A DNA stretch of 62,412 nt, counting the filler, from Collodictyon triciliatum (lineage: Eukaryota): NCBI GenBank assembly GCA_043381765.1. It is 24 parts of 24 records of this genome, joined end to end, with 100 filler letters (N's around TTAATTAATTAA, not from the genome) between each part and the next. Parts side by side here need not be neighbours in the genome. Positions count along the whole stretch, not along the records: positions 49,370 to 51,896 come from JBHJMP010008720.1; 23 more parts are not named here. One strand, 5' to 3'. The position numbers were made by a program, and so were the translations under genes. This document shows, in pieces, positions 2,640 through 59,891 of this stretch; positions within the stretch are counted from its first letter, which is position 1; every line of letters starts with the position of its first letter. The notes under the pieces were generated by a model. That model made no database searches. It saw nothing but the letters and a program-made list of their open reading frames with translations, and was not told where the DNA came from.

Positions 2640-3380
2640 GTCAGAACCCTAGTTGCGGCGTTGTCGTGTAGCTTCTTGATAAGTGTGGTGAACTTTGAGC
2701 AGAATCCTCGCTTTTTTAGGATGATTTCTAGGGCTTCATGGTTCACATGGTCATATGCTTTCTCAAGGTCGTAGAATATCATGATGCGTGGGTCTTTGGA
2801 GACTTGACATTCCATGTATTCCTTGTTAACGAGCCATATGTTTGTGTCGATGTTCCTGCCACGCATGAATCCTATTTGCCCCTTTGATATGAGCCTATCG
2901 GCGATATCGGAGATTCGATTTCTTAGGATTGTGGCAAATATCTTGTAGTCGTTGTTGAGCAGCGATATCGGGCGCCAGTCTCTGAGGCCAGTTGCATCCT
3001 CTTTCTTTGGGATTAGACGCACCATTGCTTCTGTAAAGCCATCCGGGATGTTATCTGCATCTGCAATCAGGCTATTTAGGAGTCCCAGGAGGGATGTCTT
3101 GATGATTTGGAAGAAGGTGGCGTACGCTTCACTAGGTAGACGGTCAGGTCCTGGTGCTTTGCGCTTTGGCATGGACTTGATAGCGCTACACAATTCGCTG
3201 TCATCAATGTCTTTGACCGTGGATTCTGCCTCCCTTTCGTTCGCCACAGAGCAGTTGTTTGTTACCAGCCCGAGGGTTGCACGGTCAAAGTCTCGTTTCT
3301 TCCACACATCGGTGTAGAAGTTTTGGATGTTGGTTTTGCCAATCTCTTCAGGTGGCAGCGGTTCATTCCCATCCGGGTAC
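2640..3380 (-). mobile_element. L1/Tx1-like LINE reverse transcriptase fragment (5'-truncated, runs off contig)
   Basis: KAPGPDRLP, LIPKK, WRPISLLNNDYKI, QIGFMRGR and DLEKAYDHVNH are RT motifs of non-LTR retrotransposons. Confidence 0.95.
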
Positions 3381-3539
3381 GAAGTTCGAGGTACAGAATA
3401 ATATCGAACCCAATCCGCGTATTGAATATAATGATAGTTAAAAGAACAAGGAATGCTAGTTCCAAAGTTTGTGTGGTTGATTAAGATAAAAATTAGATTT
3501 AGGTGCATATTAACTTTTTTTTTTTTAGGGTTGATGAAA

Positions 3540-4870
3540 ATTTCTCCTTGTGCCAGGTCTATCAGATGTACAGCAGGCTGTTTACGGAGCGTCTCTTTGT
3601 AAATTTATTTTTCTGTGGCGGTTTGTCAGCATTTTCTTCCTTATTATCTTTTCCTCAATAGAACTTCAATCCAAATTTATCATTTCGGTGTCTATGAGAC
3701 TGTCCTGAGATTGACTCTTAACTAATTGGCGGTACCGATCCACTAGAACCCAAGTGGCACCGAAGACCTGTAAAACCTCAAATAAGACTGTGCTCCTTAA
3801 AATAACAAATTGCCTTCAAAACATCTACATCGCACTCTATTAAATCTATTTCTCTGAATAAAAAGAAAAGAAAAGAAAGAGAAAAAGAAAGAGAAAAAGA
3901 AAGAGAAAGAGAAAGAGAAAAAGAAAGAGAAAAGAAAAAGAGAGGGAAAGAAAAAGAAATTAAAGAAGCTGCTGATTCAAATGTTCCTACCACAATAGAT
4001 ATACAGCACACTGTTATCCCTACGCTGCCACCGGATGAATCGTTGTTCATGTACGCGAGGATGATAGACTAATATCACATACCCTTGACATTAGAATCTC
4101 CTCAAACGCTCCGTTCTAGTCACAAACATGACAAAAAAGTGTGTCGAATATTTTCACCTGTATCATTTTCACGGATGTTATTGCCATCGATGTTGTGTTA
4201 CTTCTGAAAGTGGACATGGGCCTGGTGACAGCAGTCCCACGAATAATTAGCGACCTCATTTACATTCTTCACAAAAACAAAAACAAACAAAAACAAACAA
4301 AAACAAGTCAAACAGCACTTTTCCCTAATTTCCTCTATATGCATAGCAATCATACAAAATGATGTTAAAGTTAAACGATATTAATAATCCCAGTAGTGTG
4401 GGAATGCCCCGCCGTACCAGATATACGACACCAGAAGAAACTTGCCGCACACAAGCGTAAATGCGACAACAAGGCGATCGAAAACATCGTAGATGTACAC
4501 AGATACCACACAAATCGACAGAGACAGCAGAAGCACATAGCCGCGATACCAGTAATACTGCGGCTTGATATCATCCAGGAGGAACTTGGTGACTTTGTAT
4601 GCTGCAAACTTGGACCGATTCTCGGCCGACTCCCTACACCAGGAGGCCACCGTTATGGTTGTGGTACCCACAAATCCATTGTAGAATGCCTCGACTCGCA
4701 TATCACATCTTATCAGCATGTAAAGAACCTGTGTTTTCTGAGGAAGGCGACAGTATATAGAGGATATCCGATGATGTACACAAGAAGAATTATCCAGCCG
4801 ATGATTGCTGCAATCAGATGCAGACCTAATGCAGCAAGATGTCGTGATAGTAAGTGACACACATAAAAAA
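3540..4870 (-). CDS. Spliced gene fragment encoding a multi-pass membrane C-terminal domain
   Basis: Hydrophobic exons LIAAIIGWIILLVYIIGYPLY and KFLLDDIKPQYYWYRGYVLLLSL with GT-AG boundaries. Family unresolved. Confidence 0.4.
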
Positions 4871-7250: not shown

Positions 7251-8069
7251 AGATAAATATCGAGGTAGAAAACTTACTGTAGCCTCATCAATCAAAGAAG
7301 AATCATCCACAAAAGACCCATGATGATTTGCCTGGCCACTTTACATATAGTATCGTAGTTTGGAGATAATAAAAAGTCAAGATAACGTGTCCCATAAAAA
7401 AAAAAGGATATAGTAGCAAATCTCTATGTGTATTGATATATGACACCATGATGAGAGAGAGGCTAAACTGGGTGAGTTATAATAATAATATTATCCGCAT
7501 CGAGAGAGAAAACGTACGACTCCATAGTAGCTTGTCCTCTAATTAAGGTTGTTCGGGTGGGAGTAAAGCACCAAGGAACTTAACTTAGTTCAGTTGACAA
7601 GGGGGAAAATGTGTATTCCCAAAGACAGATGTCCCTGGGAATGCCTGTTATTCACCATTTATCCTTTGGCTTTTTTTACTTTACACTTTACACTTTACAC
7701 TTTACGCTTTTCACTTTTGTTTTTTGTTTTTTTGTTTTTTTGTTTTTTTGTTTTTTTGTTTTTTTGTTTTTTTGTTTTTTTGTTTTTTTGTTTTTTTGTT
7801 TTTTTGTTTTTTTGTNNNNNNNNNNNNNNNNNNNNNNNNNNNNNNNNNNNNNNNNNNNNTTAATTAATTAANNNNNNNNNNNNNNNNNNNNNNNNNNNNN
7901 NNNNNNNNNNNNNNNAAGAAAAAAAGAAAAAAAAGAAAAAAAGAAAAAAAGAAAAAAAGAAAAAAAGAAAAAAAGAAAAAAAGAAAAAAAGAAAAAAAGA
8001 AAAAAAGAAAAAAAGAAAAAAAGAAAAAAAAGAAAAAAGAAAAAAGAAAAAAAGAAAAAAGAGAGCCAT

Positions 8070-10196
8070 CTATCGCTTAATCTGCTCGACTCGAATGTTC
8101 TCTGTGATGAAAAGGATGCGGTTGCCATTTCTTCGGTAGCTCCAGAAGAATCGAAAAGCAAACACGCTGACAGCTATGAGCGAAGTGGACAGCGTGATGC
8201 GTGGAGACATAAAATCGGATCCGAATATCACGATGCTCTTGTCTTGCGAGAAGACGGCACCAATGTTTAGTTTGCAGAGGATGGAAACGACAAGCGACCA
8301 AACACACCCGACAATCGCAAAGTTTGACGCTTTCCTGGCTTTGATGTTGAACGTATCAATCATGATGCACCATATCAGCGTATATGCACAAAATACCCAC
8401 GAAATAGCGCGATAGTCCCATCCGCACAAAACACCGGAAGATATAACAACTTTAAAAATCAGAAACATGACATACCAGTAGTCAAACGAACGTACCATGT
8501 GTCGAAGCATGGTGATGTTGGACGTGGTTATCATCTGTATTGTCATGAAAACGATGCCCAATAGCGTGACCACTATGGAAACATACCTAAACTCAACCCC
8601 AAAGTCGACCCCGATGGCGGGAATGAACGCCAGAATCGGTGAGAATGTGCCGACAACGAATCCCAGGAAATGATAGGCCCTGGACTTTAGCACCATGGTG
8701 GCTACGGGATACTTTTTCGTAATCACTCGGTGAAACAGTGTGTTCCGCGTATCATACTCGATGATTTTGCTCTCCATGATTCCAAACACCAGATACTTCT
8801 CGGCATCTGCAGCATCCAGAATCTCTTGCTCTATCACAATCGCACTCTTTTTTCTGCTTTCTTGTCGCTCTGCAATATCCGATTCTTTTTGTTTCGCCGT
8901 CGGATGTGATTTTTGGGCTTCTCCGTATGCCTGTTTCGACAATCGTCCGAATGGCAGGATGATGGATTTTTTGCTGGTATTGATGCTGTTGCTGCTACCG
9001 GTCTCGTTATTTTGCAACCTGGATACTTCATACTTGGTGTCGCGTCTTTTCTTGCGCATGTATTCTGCATCGATCTCATAAAAATGAGACAAAAACGCGA
9101 TGGTTGTTGGCCTCTTGCGTACAACGTGGGCATAAAATATGCGGAGTAGATAAACAATAATTGTGGTCAGGTTGTCGAGAGCCTGAAGCCTCACGTCCAT
9201 TATCTCAATCCCACTGCCCTCGTGGGACATCTTTTCGGTTTGAAAATCGACCAAGCGAAGCAGCATTATAAAGTACAATGGCGAATACGCCAAGATGCCC
9301 ATAAATAGAGTGGCGTTCATTTGTTTCAGATGCTTTGCAGCGTGGGCATCATATAGAACAAGGAGAAGCACCAGACTCCACGACGAATGTATTGTCGCCA
9401 AAAGATTTGATACCGAGAAGCCGTAAAGGAGAATCAGGCAGATGTGGAAAGAGACCACGTTATATACAGTGAACCAAAAGTTGAAGGATTTTGCAAGCTC
9501 CCTGACGATTCCCACGCGAATAAACAATGCATGGTGCAGGAAAAAGTTGATTGTGCACACAATCTGAAGAGGTACGTAGGTTTCTGATGGGATAAGTTGG
9601 TTCCCGAGGCAGATACACAAACAGTTTAGTGAGCAAACACACCAAATCATCGAAACCAACACAGACACGCTAGCGTGCTTGTATACAGTAGACAGCACCT
9701 TGAAAACCCTCTTATTCCGTACCAGCAGCGACAGAACCGTGTTTCGCCTCTCTATCAGCTTCGTCCTTTTTTTCAGAACCAGCTTGACGATGGAGGAGTT
9801 TTGCTTCGCTGCGCCGATGTCCTGGTGTTGTGGGACAATGTCTTCACTTTCGGCCATTATGGCGGCCTCACTAGACTGTACATCACGCTCCATATTCTGT
9901 GATGCAGTGGCGCTACTGTGCGCAATGTGAGCCTCATCAATCGCGTCGATGCCGTTCTGCGATGTCATGTCTTGCTGGTTGTCTGGGAGTCTGCTTCTTG
10001 CCGCAGCAGCATCCAAGGAATCGCGCTTTGAAGGTGTCCGGTTCAGGGATGAATGAGCGGCGTCCTGTGTTTCGGGGATGTCCTCACAGATGGGAATATG
10101 CAAGGAGTGCGAAGCGGCAGGGCGGGCGGTTTGGTTCTCTGCGGCGTTGCGCTCCGGTTTTTCCAGGTCGATGTCTTCGATCAGCTCCAGCTTCAT
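8070..10196 (-). CDS. Intronless 708-aa polytopic membrane protein with two related TM bundles
   Basis: Uninterrupted ORF with a disordered N-terminus. Two hydrophobic halves share a motif (IVRELAKSFNFWF vs MLRHMVRSFDYWY). Confidence 0.8.
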   Translation of the reverse strand: MKLELIEDIDLEKPERNAAENQTARPAASHSLHIPICEDIPETQDAAHSSLNRTPSKRDSLDAAAARSRLPDNQQDMTSQNGIDAIDEAHIAHSSATASQNMERDVQSSEAAIMAESEDIVPQHQDIGAAKQNSSIVKLVLKKRTKLIERRNTVLSLLVRNKRVFKVLSTVYKHASVSVLVSMIWCVCSLNCLCICLGNQLIPSETYVPLQIVCTINFFLHHALFIRVGIVRELAKSFNFWFTVYNVVSFHICLILLYGFSVSNLLATIHSSWSLVLLLVLYDAHAAKHLKQMNATLFMGILAYSPLYFIMLLRLVDFQTEKMSHEGSGIEIMDVRLQALDNLTTIIVYLLRIFYAHVVRKRPTTIAFLSHFYEIDAEYMRKKRRDTKYEVSRLQNNETGSSNSINTSKKSIILPFGRLSKQAYGEAQKSHPTAKQKESDIAERQESRKKSAIVIEQEILDAADAEKYLVFGIMESKIIEYDTRNTLFHRVITKKYPVATMVLKSRAYHFLGFVVGTFSPILAFIPAIGVDFGVEFRYVSIVVTLLGIVFMTIQMITTSNITMLRHMVRSFDYWYVMFLIFKVVISSGVLCGWDYRAISWVFCAYTLIWCIMIDTFNIKARKASNFAIVGCVWSLVVSILCKLNIGAVFSQDKSIVIFGSDFMSPRITLSTSLIAVSVFAFRFFWSYRRNGNRILFITENIRVEQIKR

Positions 10197-11287
10197 TTCT
10201 TTGCAGCCTTTTCACTTCGAGGTGTTTGACAAGCTGTATTTTTTTTTATTTCTCTTTCTTGTAGGATGGGGTGTTAAAGTCTTATCAAAATGCAGTTTGG
10301 TTTGTGCGTACAGGCAGACATGGAAAGAAGAGGCCTTTCCTGCTATCACTTTTTTATTTTTGTTTATTTTTGTTTATTTTTGTTTATTTTTGTTTATTTT
10401 TGTTTATTTTTGTTTATTTTTGTTTATTTTTGTTTATTTTTGTTTATTTTTNNNNNNNNNNNNNNNNNNNNNNNNNNNNNNNNNNNNNNNNNNNNTTAAT
10501 TAATTAANNNNNNNNNNNNNNNNNNNNNNNNNNNNNNNNNNNNNNNNNNNNAATCAAAAATCAAAAATCAAAAATCAAAAATCAAAAATCAAAAATCAAA
10601 AATCAAAAATCAAAAATCAAAAATCAAAAATCAAAAATCAGAAATCAAAAATCAAAAATCAGAAATCAAAAATCAAAAATCAAAAAATCAGAAAAATCAG
10701 AAAAATCAGAAAAATCAGAAAAATCAGAAATAAAAAGTAAAAAACTTATAGCCACATACCAGTTACTTTCGCCATCTATAATGAAAAAGAGAAAGTCAGT
10801 TGTATGAAACATAAGTACAAGCTCAAGTAGTCCACCAAGCACGAGTTAAATCGAAAATGACGTCTCCACCGGTCCACCATTATTAACACAAATTAATTAT
10901 AGTATTCCGAATTGGAGGAGCATATAAGCCAAGACCATCCTGGTGGGAGGTGCCGCGTAAGATAGCAACACCGATTTTTTTAATTGATTATGTTCAGTAT
11001 TCAACTGATCATTTTTGTAAAATGAACCTTACTGTTGGTAATATAGAGCATTTTTACAAATAATAATTTCGATGGTATTTTATGGAATGACTTTAGAGCA
11101 TATAATTCACGATTGTTAAATACAAGTTTACACTGAAAAATATCACACATTCCGACATAGTATTGTCCAGTATGCCTTGCAATTAATGGGTCGTCTCCAA
11201 CTAGATTTCGCACTCTTTTGAGTCATCTGCAAGAGAGGCATGCAGAAGTTTGTATATAATTCATAGATACCGCATATTCAAGAGAAG

Positions 11288-21719: not shown

Positions 21720-23207
21720 TCAAATAATTGAGGATGTTAACTTCATTACCTTTTGTGATTTGTCTAGAAAATGGTGAAAGGGATGAAAAATGTTAAACAT
21801 TATGTCCCGTTTTTGTAATTTCACACTCAAATAGTATCCACCTGATGAAGAGTGCCTATATTCCAGTACATTTGTTATCTCTTTAAGATAAAAGCGATGC
21901 ATGCTGGAACGCGCCTTGTGTATATAGTTTGATCCCTTGAAGTAAACATTCTGTTCGCTGACCCAAAGTTGATTTCTATTTTGGATATGCGCACATCTTT
22001 TTCTCTTTATATCTGCAGAACAAAATTCTGAGTATTTTTTCTCACCGGAAGTTTCTTTATCAAACGAACTTGAGATGGAAAGCTTGTGGATATGTCGTTT
22101 CGGTATCCAAAGAATTGTGTTTGTGTAGAGTCTGTAAACTGAAAAGTTCCCCTTGCATAATGTTTTTACATCTTTATCAACGACTCGCCGATTTGAGACC
22201 ATCTTTTTATCATAATATCCATGTTTATATGAATCATTCGAGTTGTAATCATCTAATGAATAAACATTAAAGACGACTATGGTATTATCCATCCATTTGA
22301 TGGCCCATCTTATTGGGTCGAACGTCACTTTTCGAAGACCGACTTTGAATATCTCTTGAATTCTCCAGTTTTGGTGACTTTTTGAGTAAATGCTAACAAT
22401 CATGTGGCTGTTGAATTGACCCAAAGGCATGTAAGATACCACAGCTATTACGTTATCAGATACAGTCGTAAAGCGCCCAAAATCATCCCCTTGTAATTTT
22501 CTATCCGCTATCAAGGGATACGGGGTGAAATATTTTGAATTCTTAGATTTAGTGAACACAATTAACTGTGGATGAACATATATTGAACATATATTTCTAT
22601 GATTGTTAATCAGAGGCATTCCAAGGACAAAATTTTTCATTATTGGGTCAACTGCAAGTGTTCCAAATGCGTGGTGGGGAGCGTATAAAATTTTATATTT
22701 GAATGTTGTTATAATTGCATAAATGGAGTTCTTTTTTTTTATTTGGAAAACAAACAAATTTTCTCTTTCAGATGAATGAATTGACTCTTCAAATGATATA
22801 AACAGTCTATTCTGAGAAAAACTGCTATGGATACCGAACGGGTAGAGTCTAATCATATTAATATATGCTTCATCTTTTACTATTAGAGGTGTGTCACTTC
22901 CAGCTATAAATTCGTATAGTTTAATACGAGTTGTGTTGTTTACTTTGTCAGGGACCACACCTAATAGCATCTCATTCTTATTCTTGAAATTTTTGCTCAA
23001 CAAAAATAAAAATTGGTCAGGAAAATCATATATTTTGAAAACATTTTTTTGTTTCGCGACTTCCGGATTGGTAAGTTGACCAAAGTTCAAGAATCCTCCT
23101 CGTTGGGGATAAGCGTAATGATCCCATATTAACAAATCGCTCAAATTTGTGCAGGATTGTAGACAGTAATAACCATTGGATTGTAAGTCGCACACTCTAG
23201 AACAACC
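21720..23207 (-). CDS. Large terminal exon (about 495 aa) of an unknown beta-rich protein, possibly a degenerate FG-GAP-like propeller
   Basis: Long ORF after a TTTGTAG acceptor. Segments FGTLAV..FVLGMP and GDDFGRFTTVSDNVIAV resemble FG-GAP blades. Confidence 0.45.
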   Translation of the reverse strand, partial: GCSRVCDLQSNGYYCLQSCTNLSDLLIWDHYAYPQRGGFLNFGQLTNPEVAKQKNVFKIYDFPDQFLFLLSKNFKNKNEMLLGVVPDKVNNTTRIKLYEFIAGSDTPLIVKDEAYINMIRLYPFGIHSSFSQNRLFISFEESIHSSERENLFVFQIKKKNSIYAIITTFKYKILYAPHHAFGTLAVDPIMKNFVLGMPLINNHRNICSIYVHPQLIVFTKSKNSKYFTPYPLIADRKLQGDDFGRFTTVSDNVIAVVSYMPLGQFNSHMIVSIYSKSHQNWRIQEIFKVGLRKVTFDPIRWAIKWMDNTIVVFNVYSLDDYNSNDSYKHGYYDKKMVSNRRVVDKDVKTLCKGNFSVYRLYTNTILWIPKRHIHKLSISSSFDKETSGEKKYSEFCSADIKRKRCAHIQNRNQLWVSEQNVYFKGSNYIHKARSSMHRFYLKEITNVLEYRHSSSGGYYLSVKLQKRDIMFNIFHPFHHFLDKSQKVMKLTSSII

Positions 23208-23727
23208 TACAAAAGATTAAGCTGAAAATTAAAAAAAAATCAATTCTATAAGATCTAATACATGTAATTTTCCATTTATATTACAATTATTACACACTTC
23301 TTTCGTTTTTATTCCGTTTTTGTCCTTCTTTATTTTCCTTTTGTTAAACTTTTTTATTGATTCAAAGTGCAACCAAGTAAAGATGTACAAGGGTAACGAT
23401 GCTGGGCAACAACCTCTTGGCTCATAGTATGTTCACATTATTATATTTTTTATTTGCTTTCCATGTTTTCTAGTTTCTTCTCTGTTTTCTTGATACTTTG
23501 CTTTGCAGTTTACAAGTGGTGATGTATGTATGTATGTATGTATGTATGTATGTATGTATGTATGTATGTATGTATGTATGTATGTATGTATGTATGTATG
23601 TATGTATGTATGTATGTATGTATGTATNNNNNNNNNNNNNNNNNNNNNNNNNNNNNNNNNNNNNNNNNNNNTTAATTAATTAANNNNNNNNNNNNNNNNN
23701 NNNNNNNNNNNNNNNNNNNNNNNNNNN

Positions 23728-26359: not shown

Positions 26360-26435
<76 letters not shown>

Positions 26436-26591
26436 AAAAACGCTTGTGCTTCTTGGAAACTTTTTCTTTTTTAAAAAGTTTATTATTGTCGATCTTAGAA
26501 GGGACTTTTATTATTGGATTGGAGAAAACTCTACTTGAATGTATGTCTTCTCATAGGTAAAAGCAATTTTTTTTTTATTTTTTTTTTTTTG

Positions 26592-34405: not shown

Positions 34406-36784
34406 TTAAGCTGTGGCTTTCTGTCTCCACTCAGCTGCTTTCTCGGTGTCCATCTCAACACCCCATCCATTCTCATAGCATTCAGCAACAATAGAGGAAA
34501 ATATTGGATGAGATTTTTCATTCAATGAAGACAAAACACGAACAACAAAAGAATCACCGCCTCTGGCTTTGTCAAGTAGGTGCTTCTTTGATTTCTCTGA
34601 ATTGCAGCATAAGCCATGAAGAATAATTAATTCCTCTTCCGTCAATGATTGAGAAATAAAATCATCAAAGTTCTTCTGAATTATTGGAAGACAATCCATA
34701 TCTCCGAGTTCACATGCTTTAATGTAATATCGAAATGCTTGAAGGCAGTCTTTTTCCACTCCTTCTCCCTGTAAATATCGGTTTCCGAGCCCTCCTACAG
34801 CATTAGGGTGGTTTTGTTCTGCGGCCTTTTTATACCAGTTTATGCACGCTTGATAATCTTTGATTGTATTGATGCCATTTCTTGCGCAGAATCCCATGAC
34901 GAATTGAGCGTTTGCGTATCCCATTTCACCATATTTCTTGATTTTTTCATATGCATGTATGTTGCTTTCCTTTGCAGCACTACCATACATTTCAATAGCT
35001 TTCTCGGTGTCCTTCTCAACACCCCATCCATTCTCATAGCATTCAGCAAGAATAGAAACAGCTCGTGAATATTTGTGTTTTTCACCAATTTTTCTTCCAT
35101 ATGTCTCGTACTCCAGAATATCTTCCTTCATTTCAGCAAATTCTTTCAAAACATTGAATGCCTCCTTTGAGCCTTGTTGTGCAAGTTGCTTCAATCCATC
35201 AAAGTTTTTATATGCTTTTAGAGCGATAATTCTCCATTCAATTACTTTCTCGGTGTCTTTATCAACACCCCATCCGTTTTCATAGCACTCAGCCATCATT
35301 TGAGCCTGGAACTTGGTGAACTTACCCTGCACACAATAGGCAGCAAAGTCCGCATCAAAGGAAGCAGCACCGATAGAAAGTAGAAGGAATTTGTTGAATT
35401 TACTCAATCCCATGACGTTTCTGATTTGGATGCTTCCACCTTGCAGCTTTCTTGGGCCGATAATCTGGACTGTCTTTGCATCTTGGATTCTGTTGGCGTC
35501 AATCGTGTTCATCGCATCACTTGTTCTGTTGAATACTGCGATGACTTCATCTGGCTTTTCTTTCTTGACGAGGTATTTTCCTTGGGTGTAGGTCACTTCT
35601 GACTTTTGCACACTGTGTGTTTGGTTTCCTGTGGCTACATCCCAAATACGTATTGTATTATCACTACTTCCTGAAGCCAGCCAATTTTCACCATTCGGCC
35701 CTTGAATACTGCAAACGCTGTTGATATAATTTGTATGGCCTTTTAATGTTTTGATTTGGTTTCCTGTGGATACATCCCAAATACGTATTATATAATCACA
35801 ACTTCCAGAAGCCAACCAACTTTCACCATTTGGTCCTTGGATAGAGCAAACACTCATGACAATATGTGTATGACCTTTTAATGTTTTGATTTGGTTTCCT
35901 GTGGCTACATCCCAAATACGTATTGTATTATCATTACTTCCAGAAGCCAACCACTTTTCACCATTCGGTCCTTGAATACTGCAAACACTTTGGACCCAAT
36001 CTGTATGTCCACGTAATGTTCTGATTTGATTTCCTGTAACTTTATCCCAAATACGTATTGTTTTATCATAACTTCCTGATGCCAGCCAATTTTCACCATT
36101 CGGTCCTTGAATGCTGCAGACACTAGTGACAGCCCATGTATGACCTTCTAGTTTTTTGATTTGGCTTCCTGTGGCTACATCCCAAATACGTATTGTTGTA
36201 TCCCAACTTCCAGAGGCCAACCAATTTTCACCATTCGGTCCTTGAATACTACAAACAATGTTGATAGAATCTGTATGTCCTTCTAATGTTTTCATTTGAT
36301 TTCCTGTGGCTACATCCCAAATACGTATTGTATTATCTCGACTTCCAGAAGCCAGCCAGTGTTCACCATTCGGTCCTTGAATATTGCAAACACTCCAGAC
36401 AAAGCCTGTATGACCTTCTAATATTTTGATTTGGTTTCCTGTGGTTGCATCCCAAATACGTATTGTCTTATCATCACTTCCAGAAGCCAGCCAATTTTCA
36501 CCATTCGGTCCTTGAATACTACAAACACTTCTAACTTCATGTGTATGCCCTTCTAATTTATCATTCAGAATTCCGAATTTTACATTATTCATATTCGCAT
36601 TATCAAAAACACAATCACCAAGCATCGAATTCGTGAAATCAACATCATCCAAGTTGGCACCAGTGAAGTTTGCACCATCAAGGATTGAGTTACTGAGATT
36701 TGCATGTGGAATTTTGATGTTTGATAAATCCATTCCACCGAACGAAACATTCATGAAATTCAAAAGTGTGATTGCATCAGATGC
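34406..36784 (-). CDS. Pentapeptide-repeat + 7 WD40 + Sel1-repeat protein; probable C-terminal half of a NACHT-WD (NWD/NLR-like) protein, 5' end off contig
   Basis: ASDAITLLN..F.GMDLSNIKIPHANLS..LDGANFTGANL pentapeptides, seven 45-aa WD repeats, and Sel1 motifs AECYENGWGVEKD and WYKKAAEQNHPNA. Confidence 0.9.
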   Translation of the reverse strand, partial: ASDAITLLNFMNVSFGGMDLSNIKIPHANLSNSILDGANFTGANLDDVDFTNSMLGDCVFDNANMNNVKFGILNDKLEGHTHEVRSVCSIQGPNGENWLASGSDDKTIRIWDATTGNQIKILEGHTGFVWSVCNIQGPNGEHWLASGSRDNTIRIWDVATGNQMKTLEGHTDSINIVCSIQGPNGENWLASGSWDTTIRIWDVATGSQIKKLEGHTWAVTSVCSIQGPNGENWLASGSYDKTIRIWDKVTGNQIRTLRGHTDWVQSVCSIQGPNGEKWLASGSNDNTIRIWDVATGNQIKTLKGHTHIVMSVCSIQGPNGESWLASGSCDYIIRIWDVSTGNQIKTLKGHTNYINSVCSIQGPNGENWLASGSSDNTIRIWDVATGNQTHSVQKSEVTYTQGKYLVKKEKPDEVIAVFNRTSDAMNTIDANRIQDAKTVQIIGPRKLQGGSIQIRNVMGLSKFNKFLLLSIGAASFDADFAAYCVQGKFTKFQAQMMAECYENGWGVDKDTEKVIEWRIIALKAYKNFDGLKQLAQQGSKEAFNVLKEFAEMKEDILEYETYGRKIGEKHKYSRAVSILAECYENGWGVEKDTEKAIEMYGSAAKESNIHAYEKIKKYGEMGYANAQFVMGFCARNGINTIKDYQACINWYKKAAEQNHPNAVGGLGNRYLQGEGVEKDCLQAFRYYIKACELGDMDCLPIIQKNFDDFISQSLTEEELIILHGLCCNSEKSKKHLLDKARGGDSFVVRVLSSLNEKSHPIFSSIVAECYENGWGVEMDTEKAAEWRQKATA

Positions 36785-36888
36785 NNNNNNNNNNNNNNNN
36801 NNNNNNNNNNNNNNNNNNNNNNNNNNNNTTAATTAATTAANNNNNNNNNNNNNNNNNNNNNNNNNNNNNNNNNNNNNNNNNNNNCTTA

Positions 36889-48910: not shown

Positions 48911-49827
48911 AATGAATTCTAAGAAGGAAGAAAAACATATGAGATATTGCTGATGTAAGCATTTGTAAAGTTTATTGGGTTATGTTCATAACAAAACATC
49001 AAAAAACTGGGGGTTTCTCAGCGGAATTAACACCCTATAGCTTTGGCGCAATCTTTTATTTTATTTCTTGTAGCGATTTCAACTTCCTTACGCCATTGAG
49101 ACTTAAATAATCGAACTGAGTAATATGAATAAAACCATGATAACAAACCACAATTAACCATATAATAAATCCAATAAAAAACCAATAAAAAACCAATAAA
49201 AAACCAATAAAAAACCAATAAAAAACCAATAAAAAACCAATAAAAAACCAATAAAAAACCAATAAAAAANNNNNNNNNNNNNNNNNNNNNNNNNNNNNNN
49301 NNNNNNNNNNNNNTTAATTAATTAANNNNNNNNNNNNNNNNNNNNNNNNNNNNNNNNNNNNNNNNNNNNTTTGTTTTTTTGTTTTTTTGTTTTTTTGTTT
49401 TTTTGTTTTTTTGTTTTTTTGTTTTTTTGTTTTTTTGTTTTTTGTTGGTTATTTACCATATTTTTATCAGAACTGTACCAGATCACCAGATCACTTAGTT
49501 CGATCAAAGTGCTGGGTGATGTTGTGGCGCGGCAGTGCTATCCGTTTTGGACAGAAAAAAGACCTATTGAAGCAACTTTGAATAGAAACTCTTTTTCTGG
49601 AATCAATCGTGAGCGTTCGCAGTAATCCTGTAAGTGGTATGCGTTCTCATGTAGGTCACAAGCACTCCTACTTGGAGATATCTGAAATAGCGATGGAACA
49701 AGGTTGTCACGCTTCAATCCTGTTGTTGAGTCGGTAACTCAGCGGGTTTATTCGTATACCAGAAGCAGTAACCACCCTTCCATTGGCAAACTTGGTTCGC
49801 TAGTATCCACGGTCCCACCACTTTTTT

Positions 49828-50118
49828 CTATAAAGATTGCGTAGTGGTGAAGGCTGCCAGGAAAGACTCAGCAGCATGTTTTTTTGTTTTTTTTAGAGGA
49901 AGGTGTATGTTTTCTTTTTGAAGGATTAAAAATACTTTATCGAGTATATTTTTAGCGTTGTTAAAGTCCCTCGTCAAGGATACAGTTTGTTTGCTTTCTG
50001 AGCGATTGAATTCTTTAGATGAGACATCTATGTACAGTTTTTTGAATTTACTTTCAGTGACATGTATTCCAGTTCTTTTTCGCAGTTGCAACACATCTTG
50101 GAGTTCTTAACTCTACAC
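49828..50118 (-). pseudogene. Fanzor/TnpB-like RNA-guided nuclease C-terminal remnant (RuvC-II, Zn finger, RuvC-III)
   Basis: Across frameshifts: E-L-R-T/S-K-M-C-C-N-C, V-H-R-C-L-I, RSESKQTVSLT-R-D-F-N-N-A-K-N-I-L. Confidence 0.72.
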
Positions 50119-50119
50119 C

Positions 50120-51896
50120 AGCTGTTTCGCTCTTCGATCCCTTGGGCAGAATAACAACTCACTCGAACGCACAAGAATCGAGTACACAACTCGACCAAGG
50201 CCCCTCGGCCACACCCTTCCGCCAATCAAAGAGAGCCCAGGAGCAGAACCTGTACGGAGCCGGCTGCTACGTCCACCTTCGAGGTAAGCACAAACTGCCC
50301 CAGAACCACGAAGCCCGCAACCAAGCGAAGAAAGAACTCGCCCAAGTCCTTAAACAACTCAAGTGCTACGAGGAGAACGTGATCATGCAACTGTACAGTC
50401 AACCCCAAGAATACACAGTAGCCTTCCCGCACCAAGAAAAAGCCGCAGAGTTTGTCAAGGCAAGACATTTTAAACTACTTAACTGCTCTTTCCGCCCATA
50501 CCAAGAGAGGCCACCTCTCCACTCCGCTATCATCGGAGATATTCCCCCCAGGCTTCACCAAGGCAGACATTGAAGAGGCCTGCAAAGTATTATTTTCGCC
50601 TACCATAGTTTACTACGAATCTGTGGACGATATCTGGACCAATGACGCGCTAGTCAAGTTCCCGGTATCAGAACTGTCCAAAGTGCCAGAAAAGAAAATA
50701 AACTTGCAAGGATTCCTCGTCCCCTTCATACTCCTCCCCGAACGGAAGGAGAAGCCCAAACACGATACCAAACATGACAAGCACCAGGGTAAATACCACG
50801 GTAAACCCAACCGCAAACCCTCGCAACCCACGCAGTCCAGGGGCGAAAGACGGCCCAACCCTCCGGGCACCATCACCCGAAGCCATGGAAGACGAGGACG
50901 ATGAACCGCCTCAGCCCATTACCGCCACCCAACCAAGAAGCTCCTCGCAAGGAACTCCCACAGAAAGTAAATGAAACTTTGGGAATGCGCATCATCCTGA
51001 AATCAACCGCACAAACAGAACAAGGCTCGGCTTCTTCTTCTGGAAGAACCCCTGAGAGGAAGACGACTACACCAAATACACCAACAGCAAACCTGAGCTC
51101 CAAACCCCAATCTAAACCACCGAGAGTAGAAAGGCCTTCATCAGAGCCTCAATCCAAGTCGACTAGATAACCAAACATAACCAACTTCATGCTCCATAGG
51201 AGCCCTGGCGTGACTCCAGCAAAGCGCGTGCAGAAATCGAATAGCCCTAAAGAAGCAAACTCCAGCAACGACTCGCTCTATCTCTCACCTGCGTCCCAAG
51301 AGACAGGGACTGAACCAGGAACACCCCAGAGCAGCGTCAGCTTCACACCGAAATTCCCAAGATTCGAGGGCGCCCCTAACAAAACAAACTACCAGCATGC
51401 TACAACTCTCATGCGTACTGCTCGCACAAACCCTAGCCCAAAAAGAGCGAGCACAGAGCTGACAGCCTCGCCGGAAAACACACAACTTCCCACCGCAGAG
51501 GCCGTAGCGTCACCCGCACAACACACAAGGAAACTATCAGCGCCAAAATTGCGAAAGATGCATGCTGAGATACCAAGAATAACTTCCGAAACAAATACAA
51601 CAACCATAGCCACAGAAACACCCACAACCGCCACGACCGAGTCAACACAGATATCCGCAAACACAACTGAACGCAACGAGAGCGATGCTGCTCTCACGGA
51701 GGGTCCTCCCTTCACCCATTAATAACAGACCATGCGTTTCGGCGTTCTGTCATGGAACGCTAGGGGGATTAACGACCCCCACAGGCGGAAAGAGGTTTAC
51801 AAGACAGCTCTTTTCACCCACGCGGATATCATCTGTCTTCAAGAGACGTGGCAGAGCCCTGAGACCCAATCTACTGACTTCGGGTGGAAGGGCCCT
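50120..51896 (+). mobile_element. L1/Tx1-like LINE, second family: frameshifted ORF1 (to 51722) and start of the ORF2 APE endonuclease (51732)
   Basis: ORF1 is homologous to 13440-13930 (C.V.LRGK, KCYE, VAFP, FKLLN, IP.G, NDALV). ORF2 begins MRFGVLSWNARGIN..DIICLQET. Confidence 0.9.
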
Positions 51897-52116
51897 NNNN
51901 NNNNNNNNNNNNNNNNNNNNNNNNNNNNNNNNNNNNNNNNTTAATTAATTAANNNNNNNNNNNNNNNNNNNNNNNNNNNNNNNNNNNNNNNNNNNNCTTC
52001 TTTTTCTTCTTTTTCTTCTTTTTCTTCTTTTTCTTCTTTTTCTTCTTTTTCTTCTTTTTCTTCTTTTCTTCTTCTTTTCTTCTTCTTTTTTTTAACTTTG
52101 TTCATTTGCTCCATCA

Positions 52117-54623: not shown

Positions 54624-57164
54624 ACCAATACACTCCCATGCCAGCCAAAACTGTCACAAAGGTTGCGCACCTGTCTAACATACCGCTGGGTGTCAGCTGG
54701 ACTGACATTTTCGAAGCCTGCAGCGAATACTTCACCCCAATCAATGTCAACTGGACAAAGCCTGGAGGAATATGCATGAATGATGCACTCGTTACATATG
54801 ACAAAGAACAGGAAAAATTGGAGAAAATGCCTACCTTTGTCGTCATTCATGGCAGACGCTGTCGCGTGGAGATACGCGCCCTCAAAGAGCCTGACATCCC
54901 ATCAACTATCCCCAACAAATAAGGGAATGACAAAAAAGGTCAAACCACAAAAAATCACCACCAATCAAGCGGCCACCAACAAACAAAACACCGCCACTCG
55001 CTTCTCAGGCTTCCACACAAAAGTAGCCGACTTTTGCGCTAAAGACTGGCCAACCGTGCAGGAATCGTCTGTGTAAAACAAGTCCAGAGCCCACAAACAA
55101 GGCCAAAGGCAACACGCGTCGTCCTCTAATGCCAGAGGGAGAAATCGCGACAAGACATCGCGGATGAAGTGCTCGAAGCCTCAATCAAGACAAAGGTTCA
55201 GGACGGCCCCAAAATCAAGAAATGGATAGCGAAATAATGGACGAAACACCAGGCGATTTTCCCGAAAGCGCTTCATCAAGTTCACCATTGAACACAGAGG
55301 AAGCAGTATCAATAGTGGAATGGCTTCAAAGTGGAGGAGAATTCGATAGCCTCAAAGATTCCAACCTCCTCAAGCCGATAATATCTCACCAAGCTCACCT
55401 TCAAATCATGGAGAGGATGCCGAGGAAAGGGAAGCCTAAGCCAACTCGGTAACAGAATCGGGAAACAGCATAATGGCACCCAGAAAACCACACCCGCCTA
55501 CCTCCTTAGAGGGCATGACTCCTGGAACCACCCAAGAGACTCTTTCTTCAGCAAGAACTGCGGAATCCATAAGAAGCGACGTCCCACACTCGGGATTGGA
55601 AGAACAACAGTCCATCCAACCTGTCGTCATCATAGAAGGTTCTGCTGAAGAAGAAAGTGAGCACCTTGAAGTCTCGGGGTCGACAAATTACTCCTCAAGT
55701 ACCGTTTATGGGAGCATACCTACTGTCGAAACTCTTGCGACTTTCCAGCGGGAAACACTTTCCAACGCAAAAAAAAAAAGAACCATAGACGAATATAAAA
55801 CACTGGTTACTCATCCTGCAATCACTGGCTCACCAAAAAAAAAAAAAATCGAAACAGGCGAAGATAAAGCATCGCCTGAGGAAAAGAGAATGAATCAGTC
55901 AAGTACAACATCGAATATAGCGAGCCAGAGAGCAAGCCAGAATGAAAGCGGAAACATGGGTTGCCCTGCCTACCGCGTGGATGAGGGGGAAAAATTGGAA
56001 CCGAGGACACTGATGACCAACAGAGTGCATCTCCCAACGCACCAGCTACAAAGAGGGTGCAGCCAAAAGCCCAAGACCATCCGACAAATCCTGACCGAGC
56101 CGCGAGCAATCATAACACCGGCCAAATGAAGGACAACTCGAGTAAACCATCCCACTCCGAGCAACCCAGCTCCAGCGGAGAGGGCCAACCACCGGAGGCT
56201 ACGGCCTCCAAAAGCCAATAGACTTTATATGCGTTTTAACGTTCTGTCGTGGAACGTTACGGGGATTAACGACCCCCAAAAAAGAAAAGAGGCCCTAAAC
56301 ACTGCTCTTTTCTCTCATGCAGATATCATCTGCCTCCAAGAAACATGGCTCAGCCCTGATAATCTAACCAATGATGAAATATGGAAACGTCCATAAATGT
56401 GCTCCTGTGGCGATAATCAACAGAGACATACAGGTGTAGAAATTTTATGCAAGAAATGGATAGCCAAACTCAATCCTCGCTTCAGAGAGATAATTCCTGG
56501 CCGTTGGATAAGTCTCGATATCAGAATCGATGGAGCTGACACTCGCATAATGACGACATACATGTCGCTCCAAACAGCAGGTTCAAATACAAGAATACAC
56601 GAGTATGAGCTTATCTCTAAGGAGATGGAGTCTGCGAAACGTATCATCATATGTGGAGACTTCAACGCTCTTCTTGATGCCAGCACCTAGTGGCCTGGGT
56701 CTTCGACATGCAATGACAAACCTTTCGTCGACTGGACAACCAGGCACAAGCTGCAAGACTTCTGGAAGACGCTCAATCCTCACTCTCTAGGAGCAACGTG
56801 CAGAAGACACACAAAAAGCGGCTTCACGGAGCAGAATCGATCGCCTCTTCTGCTCAAGGGACTTGCATGCGTGGTTCAAGAAACTCAAAACAGTCTATTA
56901 TGCGCTTTCCGACCACAGTGCTATCCTGGCTAACATCGATTCAGCCGGTGGCTGTGAATGGCAGGCGAGGTATACAGACTGGAGGGCATACAATGACTCC
57001 AAGTCGATAGAAGACATACAAAACAAGCTCAGGGCTTACTTCAACACCCCGGGTGATGCGCCCATCGAGGCGGAATGGCCTGTACTCAAAAAGCAGCTTT
57101 CTATTCTTCTTATCCAAAAGTCGAGCTGGTTTAAAAATAAGGATGGAGAGGAGCGGAAGAAGCT
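54624..57164 (+). mobile_element. L1/Tx1-like LINE: degenerate ORF1 plus APE endonuclease (ATG 56229)
   Basis: SWNVTGIN, DIICLQET, GDFNA, RIDR and SDH motifs, with in-frame stops and frameshifts. Colinear with 13668-15188. Confidence 0.93.
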
Positions 57165-59631: not shown

Positions 59632-59891
59632 GTGTGATGGCAGAAAAAAATCGAAATTTTGATGAAAAGAATGCTTTTTTTTGTTTTTTGTTTTTGTTTT
59701 TGTTTTTTTGTTTTTGTTTTTTTGTTTTTGTTTTTTTGTTTTTGTTTTTTTGTTTTTGTTTTTTTGTTTTTGTTTTTTTGTTTTTGTTTNNNNNNNNNNN
59801 NNNNNNNNNNNNNNNNNNNNNNNNNNNNNNNNNTTAATTAATTAANNNNNNNNNNNNNNNNNNNNNNNNNNNNNNNNNNNNNNNNNNNNAA

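Follow-up and report, generated by a model that had tools for sequence, protein, structure and literature searches.

A probable C-terminal relic of a TnpB/Fanzor-type nuclease gene, split over three frames and abutting a LINE, in the eukaryote Collodictyon triciliatum

The stretch of Collodictyon triciliatum DNA analysed here (assembly GCA_043381765.1; 62,412 nucleotides (nt), filler included; hereafter the window) carries, on the minus strand of contig JBHJMP010008720.1 (positions 49370-51896), what is very probably a genuine, now dead C-terminal relic (about 90-100 codons) of a Fanzor-type nuclease gene of the TnpB superfamily, belonging to a multi-copy family. Fanzors are eukaryotic RNA-guided nucleases that attract interest as compact genome editors and for what they tell about the spread of TnpB into eukaryotes. 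Fanzor2 is of the IS607 type and occurs in giant viruses and eukaryotes, and Fanzor1 is carried by Mariner, Helitron, Sola, MuDr and IS4-like elements. A preliminary description of the locus had read it as a TnpB/Fanzor C-terminal remnant distributed over three frames. This core reading stands, on the basis of profile statistics, diverged copies in metagenomes, protein-language-model neighbours and a dip in metagenome depth at the junction with a neighbouring long interspersed nuclear element (LINE).

In an excerpt of Bao and Jurka (2013; PMC3627910), the TnpB/Fanzor signature is given as D-X(125,275)-[TS]-[TS]-X-X-[C4 zinc finger]-X(5,50)-RD. From its translated sequence, the relic appears to retain the C-terminal half of this signature, with the motifs in the same order and at compatible spacing. 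All motif strings of the preliminary description were found on the minus strand, spread over three frames. Frame A contributes a stretch 5' of the zinc ribbon (50102-50148, translated as ..P K G S K S E T A G V E L R T), which is the strand leading into [TS]-[TS]; its ELRT (GAG TTA AGA ACT) occupies 50113-50102, the loose ends of five metagenome contigs can be aligned to its positions 50104-50129, and its homology to other copies is seen up to about 50131 and is uncertain beyond. Base 50102 is common to the ACT codon of frame A and to the start of S-K-M-C-C-N-C (TCC AAG ATG TGT TGC AAC TGC) in frame B (50082-50102). The latter is the first knuckle, [TS]-x-x-CxxC, and matches the TnpB profile columns S-K-T-C-S-E-C with both Cys codons intact (50093-50091 and 50084-50082). 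The [TS]-[TS]-X-X that precedes the first CxxC is present in the window only across a 1-nt frameshift, as frame B alone reads N-S-K-M-C.

The linker between the knuckles (50034-50081, minus strand, delimited by alignment traceback and variants) runs in frame B for at least 50081-50058 and changes to frame A within 50060-50041; frame B is the only one in which the variants at 50064 and 50060 are synonymous or conservative, and a variant at 50050 abolishes the frame-A stop in other copies. VHRCLI (GTA CAT AGA TGT CTC ATC) then follows in frame A (50035-50018, minus strand) and ends on TAA. The second zinc knuckle (50009-50032, minus strand) is decayed, reading H-R-C-L-I-stop in frame A and then K-E-F in frame C. 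In the C4 zinc ribbon as a whole, knuckle one (C-C-N-C, 50093-50082) is thus intact and knuckle two broken, with alternative cysteines as candidates for the fourth ligand pair. Frame C continues with R S E S K Q T V S L T R D F N N A K N I L. Within this string, R-D-F-N-N-A-K-N-I-L (49942-49971, minus strand) constitutes the RuvC-III motif, whose R-D pair (codons 49971-49966) includes the catalytic-Asp position; the motif aligns at 14.2 bits to h-d-R-D-v-N-A-A-k-N-I-l of the TnpB hidden Markov model (HMM). The R-D stands 12-17 residues past the last Cys, within the 5-50 of the signature. The motif is part of a 92-codon open reading frame (ORF) in frame C that represents the relic C-terminal tail (49828-50106, minus strand; codons 50106-49831, stop 49830-49828). 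The G+C content is 0.35 over the relic versus 0.52-0.55 over the LINE.

Diverged copies of the locus were obtained from three runs (X1, X2 and X3) of one freshwater metagenome study, which hold 6-15% of the sampled words. Contigs placed at 80% likeness (47 in X1, 13 in X2 and 8 in X3) range from identical to less than 90% alike and are distributed across relic and LINE; they were seen as 30-letter loose ends, in which paralogues and orthologues of mixed species are not separable. At least five different contigs of a single run, mostly 80-95% alike, lie over position 50060. Five contigs, drawn from all three runs, cease aligning at 50103. The loose ends of all five carry one extra base, after which they can be aligned by eye to 50104-50129; the A-to-B frame switch within T|S-K (50103-50104, minus strand) therefore results from a 1-nt loss that is peculiar to the window copy. 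On the minus strand these loose ends read V-D-x-F-R-[T/I]-S-K in one frame into the first knuckle (R-T-S-K in X2 and X3, R-I-S-K in X1), and the restored string equals the V-[DN]-x-x-x-T-S-[QK]-x-C lead-in of the reference consensus.

The second knuckle is likewise more complete elsewhere. Other copies read Y-R-C-L-I-C-K (loose ends before 50037/50038; variants 50032 G>A and 50018 G>T) and have TGC (Cys) at 50010-50008 where the window has TTC (Phe; variant 50009 A>C), so the second knuckle is C-L-I-C and/or C-K-E-C. It was destroyed in the window copy by a 2-nt deletion, which makes the TAA near 50017-50015, and by a Cys-to-Phe substitution. The preliminary description was right to call the second Cys pair decayed, but the pair is not V-H-R-C alone, as C-L-I-C and then K-E-C are read in the other copies. 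For the same reason N-R-S-E-S in frame C, which tblastn alignments had suggested as a mutated CxxC, was rejected. A tandem duplication behind the long knuckle-to-knuckle spacing was also considered and dropped, since only a 7-nt match was found by eye. Eleven of about 200 variants were listed, ten inside the reading and one past the stop. In the predicted frame 5/10 of those inside the reading are synonymous, versus 2/20 in the other two frames (Fisher p 0.026), a pattern that hints at past coding constraint.

The X1 depth jumps from 0.69 (49706-49787) to 18.8 (49788-49869), remains at 12-34 up to 50115, falls to 9.4 (50116-50197) and rises again over the LINE. This dip is the picture of two abutting repeat families. 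A metagenome contig of 139 nt, identical to 50051-50189, bridges the relic/LINE junction, and another of 93 nt matches only from 50156 rightwards. Since relic homology extends to at least about 50129 and a LINE-only contig begins at 50156, the junction lies within about 50131-50156. The oppositely oriented LINE of the preliminary description does abut the relic on the plus strand; its left limit, then placed at about 50120, moves to this interval. The LINE is represented by its decayed 5' part (50156-51896, plus strand), delimited by its frames, an Exo_endo_phos match and the diverged contigs: it faces the relic from the opposite strand, passes through broken ORF1-like frames into the start of an AP endonuclease (Exo_endo_phos, 51726-51896, plus strand, E 2.8e-6) and runs off the contig end. 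No Pfam family was found for the broken frames upstream of the AP endonuclease, from about 50160 onwards.

Searches of large sequence collections with the relic, given below, were blank, and the profile question was therefore put in the small space of the window. A generic TnpB profile was built from 49 aligned TnpB proteins, taken from 50 full-length motif-bearing ORFs with two CxxC knuckles; the ORFs came from a scan of IMG/VR for the R-D-x-N-A-A-x-N-I motif, written as a degenerate DNA pattern (at least 112 loci). It is a bona fide TnpB profile, matching ISDra2 TnpB in the PDB at 3.9e-129, with mimivirus L79 as its sole PDB match from a eukaryote or a eukaryote virus. The HMM of its 74 C-terminal columns placed the frame-C ORF first of 3018 six-frame pieces of the window (14.7 bits, E 0.0027). 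The frame-B ORF ranked fourth of 3018 (E 0.73); it lies directly upstream and is colinear, and the two ORFs match consecutive parts of the profile.

A second profile represents a giant-virus family. Its starting point was an IMG/VR locus from a giant-virus bin, whose best PDB match is the mimivirus L79 TnpB-like protein (E 1.7e-22), identified as a Fanzor2 in an excerpt of PMC11832414. The C-terminal half of this locus yielded 663 relatives at E ≤ 0.001 among 781 candidates, and the best 120 of the 663 were used. With an HMM of the last 140 residues, the frame-C ORF was again first of 3018 pieces, weakly so (9.9 bits, E 0.11; next piece 5.5 bits). In a tblastn search of 169 references against the window, the best non-repeat matches fell at the relic locus, with queries that are mutually related and with most of the 10936 weak high-scoring segment pairs in simple repeats. 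A giant-virus family relative gave 15/29 identities over S-S-K-E-F-N...K-N-I-L-D-K (E about 0.1), and the frame-B piece gave 9/25 identities to a phage TnpB. The likeness to giant-virus Fanzors, noted in the preliminary description, is borne out by these 15/29 identities to Fanzor2-like relatives.

To score the locus across its frames, a custom local profile-to-DNA alignment was used in which gaps, stops and 2- or 4-base steps are permitted; its background was at first derived from the window and then switched to the standard HMMER values. Against the generic TnpB tail profile, ungapped alignment of the locus yields 26.9 bits, and gapped alignment raises this to 31.4 bits under moderate and 42.9 bits under lenient penalties; the next best real place reaches 21.9 bits. 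The null consisted of 38 simulated 60-kb windows (order-3 Markov, both strands), whose maxima had means of 20.4, 20.9 and 23.7 bits (standard deviation 1.6-2.0) and highest values of 25.7, 25.7 and 28.3 bits, so that 0/38 reach the score of the locus. Because the RD motif had both drawn the reader to the locus and defined the generic profile, the zinc-ribbon columns were scored alone. Without the RD motif they still give 25.3 and 27.3 bits, the top of 624 real 200-nt blocks, and 0/7176 simulated blocks reach these scores. Lengthening the profile by 100 columns upstream (170 columns) brought no gain (31.7 and 43.2 versus 31.4 and 42.9 bits), as expected if the gene is cut there. The giant-virus profile, at entropy targets up to 1.5, still places the locus first, with margins up to 5.4 bits. 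The HMM match, the simulated windows and the zinc-ribbon blocks together put the motif of the preliminary description beyond chance.

Protein-language-model neighbours agree with the profiles. In the Atlas, the nearest cluster to the 92-amino-acid ORF consists of RuvC_1/NUC fragments (score 0.95, 182/256 shared features); by the tool's own calibration, about 1/100 shuffled proteins reach a first match at 0.95. The next two clusters are unnamed, one mostly Mucoromycota and one mostly Nucleocytoviricota. Of the 30 closest clusters with a name, RuvC_1/NUC is present in 10 and PF07282 in 9.

Past the stop codon, a tail on the minus strand (49783-49830) extends to the point at which the multi-copy family seems to end on the left, as marked by the jump in X1 depth and by a diverged contig that starts at 49782 with an unlike loose end. 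A 7-bp hairpin, CACCACU ... AGUGGUG (49815-49852, minus strand), has the stop codon in its loop, into which the variants at 49840 and 49831, both listed for other copies, also fall. The tail with its hairpin is a possible element end or guide-RNA scaffold. The final 208 nt of this apparent element (49990-49783, minus strand) fold with a z of -2.50, 2/200 shuffles being as good; z is -1.53 for 49900-49783, and -1.17 and -0.57 for the two strands of the 3' flank (49600-49900). Rfam was blank both for the contig (E ≤ 1) and for the whole window (gathering score).

Of the known systems, Fanzor2 (mimivirus L79, PDB 9b0l) shares with the relic the order E-x-x-T-[ST]-[KQ]-x-C-x-x-C, second CxxC, R-D-x-N-A-[AS]-K-N-I-L-x-K. 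The identities of 15/29 fall over its second knuckle and RD motif, the relic is the top window match of the family HMM, and the host is likewise a eukaryote. The relic differs from this family in a knuckle-to-knuckle spacing some 6 to 8 residues above the consensus of 13, in a spacer of about 12 residues rather than 5 between the last Cys and the RD, and in the N of R-D-F-N-N-A, where the family has A or S. In addition, its family score is just 9.9 bits (E 0.11), and neither TnpA nor IS607 ends were seen in the contig. The TnpB of IS200/IS605 elements (ISDra2, PDB 8h1j and 8bf8) has the same C-terminal order, and its profile scores best, with an E of 0.0027 over the RD part and 25-27 bits over the zinc ribbon. 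In contrast to it, the relic is located in a eukaryotic repeat contig beside a LINE, has a longer spacer before the RD and is broken and truncated; no close prokaryotic relative of it was found in the GTDB genomes. Fanzor1 (SpuFz1, Spizellomyces) was compared by signature alone and has [TS]-[TS]-X-X-C4-X(5,50)-RD in common with the relic, according to an excerpt of PMC3627910, which also describes the Mucoromycota, the main source of one Atlas neighbour cluster, as rich in Fanzor1. The RuvC/NUC/TNB region of Cas12 (RuvC_1 PF18516, NUC PF18510, Cas12f1-like_TNB PF07282) supplies the nearest language-model clusters (0.95 to 0.90), a resemblance only, as the relic has neither a CRISPR context nor a sequence-level Pfam match.

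The generic TnpB profile fits the relic better than the giant-virus Fanzor2 family does. The relic counts as a Fanzor by host, because the host is a eukaryote, and with roughly 66 decayed codons it may be a Fanzor1, a Fanzor2 or a directly acquired TnpB. The eukaryotic setting itself is given by the AP endonuclease of the LINE on the same contig and by the identical metagenome contig that bridges the junction.

A real TnpB relic could also go back to a single integration of bacterial, phage or giant-virus DNA that then decayed, rather than to a resident eukaryotic transposon family; in that case the metagenome copies would be orthologous loci of several related species or strains. We hold this to be improbable. 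It would fit the scores of the generic phage/bacterial TnpB profile (31-43 bits) versus those of the giant-virus Fanzor2 family profile (22-26 bits), and the metagenome contigs cannot separate paralogues from mixed-species orthologues. There are also precedents, in that excerpts of PMC10530073 and PMC3627910 consider, respectively, that some Fanzors were possibly acquired directly from symbionts and that a Hydra element is possibly viral. Nevertheless, no close bacterial, viral or metagenomic relative occurs in the collections searched, and a spacer of 12-17 residues from the last Cys to the R-D departs from the 5 of the TnpB consensus. The setting is also that of a repeat: the copy lies in an unplaced repeat contig of 2.5 kb, flanked by a microsatellite on one side and the LINE on the other, the depth climbs sharply over 49788-50115 relative to the left flank, and the different contigs at 50060 come from one run. 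Several diverged copies, as far as their alignments can tell, argue for a transposon family over a single insertion.

A number of results weigh against the identification of the locus as a nuclease relic, and most of them would suit an origin by chance, in which AT-rich non-coding DNA spells CxxC, extra cysteines and R-D-x-N-x-A-x-N-I-L in different frames and was picked from many windows. All searches of large databases were blank. At E ≤ 10, neither Pfam nor NCBIfam had any family matching the frame-C ORF or a TnpB family matching the frame-B ORF, and a phmmer comparison of both ORFs with all PDB chains retrieved no TnpB, Fanzor or Cas12 chain. When 5.8 billion proteins were searched by word seeding for longer relatives, 0 of the 87 candidates reached E ≤ 10, and a phmmer search of 1.84 billion cluster representatives gave 0 matches at E ≤ 0.001. 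Loci related to the 92-amino-acid ORF were sought in IMG/VR (17 pattern matches), JGI metagenome contigs (496) and GTDB genomes (286), with 0 confirmed in each. DNA patterns for R-D-x-N-N-A-K-N-I and F-R-T-S-K-M-C-C-N-C had 0 matches in IMG/VR and in metagenome contigs, respectively. The preliminary description had tied its reading to a significant profile match and to related copies. No significant match was obtained in Pfam, the PDB or the sets of 5.8 and 1.84 billion proteins; in the window-sized space, and through the related copies, the reading passes.

The statistics within the window have weak points as well. The generic profile was gathered by the same R-D-x-N-A-A-x-N-I motif by which the reader chose the locus, so the RD share of its score is not independent. 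The giant-virus HMM reaches an E of just 0.11 and loses the locus when sharpened: without entropy weighting (--enone), the locus is absent from its 6 matches at E ≤ 5, and the unweighted profile leaves it outside the top 5 of the frameshift alignment. With the window-derived background, that profile ranked the locus only third or fourth, behind places in or next to a contig of 67% G+C; with the HMMER background it was first at all settings, by thin margins of 0.6-4.5 bits for the default profile. Another copy lacks the Cys at 50036-50034 that the best-scoring path takes as its third, so this path is probably partly wrong. Three frames are required, and the length of the 92-codon frame is unremarkable (P 0.074, local model). 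The RuvC-I Asp expected 125-275 residues before [TS]-[TS], and RuvC-II, are absent from the window copy by truncation. Inverted repeats in the contig amount to 3 weak pairs, none at plausible element ends, there are no terminal repeats, and neither folds nor Rfam revealed convincing RNA structure at the relic. Chance is nonetheless highly improbable, the least credible of the explanations weighed here, given two colinear profile matches within 200 nt (E 0.0027 per window, fewer than 1/7176 blocks), gapped scores of 31.4/42.9 bits that lie more than 5 bits above the simulated top of 25.7/28.3 bits (0/38), other copies that restore frame and cysteines exactly at the signature positions, and Atlas neighbours that are RuvC/NUC/TNB clusters.

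Read as the remains of a TnpB-superfamily nuclease gene, the window copy would have kept the [TS]-[TS] lead-in strand, the C4 zinc ribbon of the TNB/NUC region, the RuvC-III motif R-D-x-N-x-A-x-N-I-L and the C-terminal tail with its stop. Its breaks would comprise the 1-nt loss at 50103/50104, at least one frame change within 50060-50041, the 2-nt loss with its stop and the Cys-to-Phe change at 50010-50008. The WED, REC, RuvC-I and RuvC-II parts would be missing upstream of about 50131-50156, where the 5' end of the LINE stands instead on the other strand. The window copy cannot be functional. Going by the family, the protein of intact relatives would bind an RNA produced from the element's own 3' end, and the RNA-guided protein would cut matching DNA beside a transposon-adjacent motif.

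The window as a whole is a pseudo-scaffold of 24 contigs, mostly about 2.5-2.6 kb and roughly ordered by falling length, which are joined by 23 linkers of 44 N + TTAATTAATTAA + 44 N each (e.g. 49270-49369 and 51897-51952). Such a linker flanks the relic contig on either side. Features of the neighbouring contigs therein have no physical linkage to the relic, and its real context is the contig 49370-51896 only. Within the window, no second copy of this contig was found except for its microsatellite and 131 nt of the LINE. The microsatellite, (CAAAAAA)n in minus-strand reading, forms the contig end at 49370-49446, outside the relic. The same repeat, (CAAAAAA)n / (TTTTTTG)n, ends many contigs (also 7715-7815, 26360-26440 and 59676-59785), probably as a result of assembler breaks. 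Two further LINE pieces were observed in other contigs: a second AP-endonuclease start (56229-56359, plus strand), 78.6% alike to 51732-51862, and a reverse-transcriptase fragment (2645-3604, minus strand; RVT_1, 3.5e-16).

Other contigs hold long frames. An unbroken 808-codon frame at 34406-36832 (minus strand) takes up nearly a whole contig and strongly matches WD40 beta-propellers (e.g. WD40, 3.3e-68) as well as Sel1 repeats (1.9e-31); this intron-less gene could be bacterial-type or NACHT/WD40-like. The contig at 15824-18359 has about 67% G+C, versus 30-40% elsewhere in the window, and long overlapping frames in several frames on both strands, one of which (630 codons) weakly matches the Cys-rich region of TMEM135 (2.8e-10). 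The frames at 8070-10211 (713 codons) and 21720-23216 (498 codons), both on the minus strand, had no Pfam family at E ≤ 0.001. A tRNA search found none.

A survey of Fanzors, in the excerpt of PMC10530073, counts 3655 unique sequences, with up to 122 copies per genome and with hosts that include animals. Given thousands of catalogued Fanzors, a dead tail fragment is in itself ordinary, and its value is that of a pointer. It illustrates that a cross-frame reading of motifs can be right despite blank standard single-frame searches. One tentative and rather unlikely extension is that the locus belongs to an undescribed divergent Fanzor lineage, characterized by a long spacer between zinc ribbon and RuvC-III and by R-D-x-N-N-A, in a eukaryote found in freshwater metagenomes, with some copies intact and active. 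The lineage itself carries or carried a multi-copy TnpB-type family that is absent from the protein catalogues searched and that gene prediction would miss. As the collections searched (protein sets, IMG/VR, JGI and GTDB) hold nothing close, full-length members of this family, if present, would be new.

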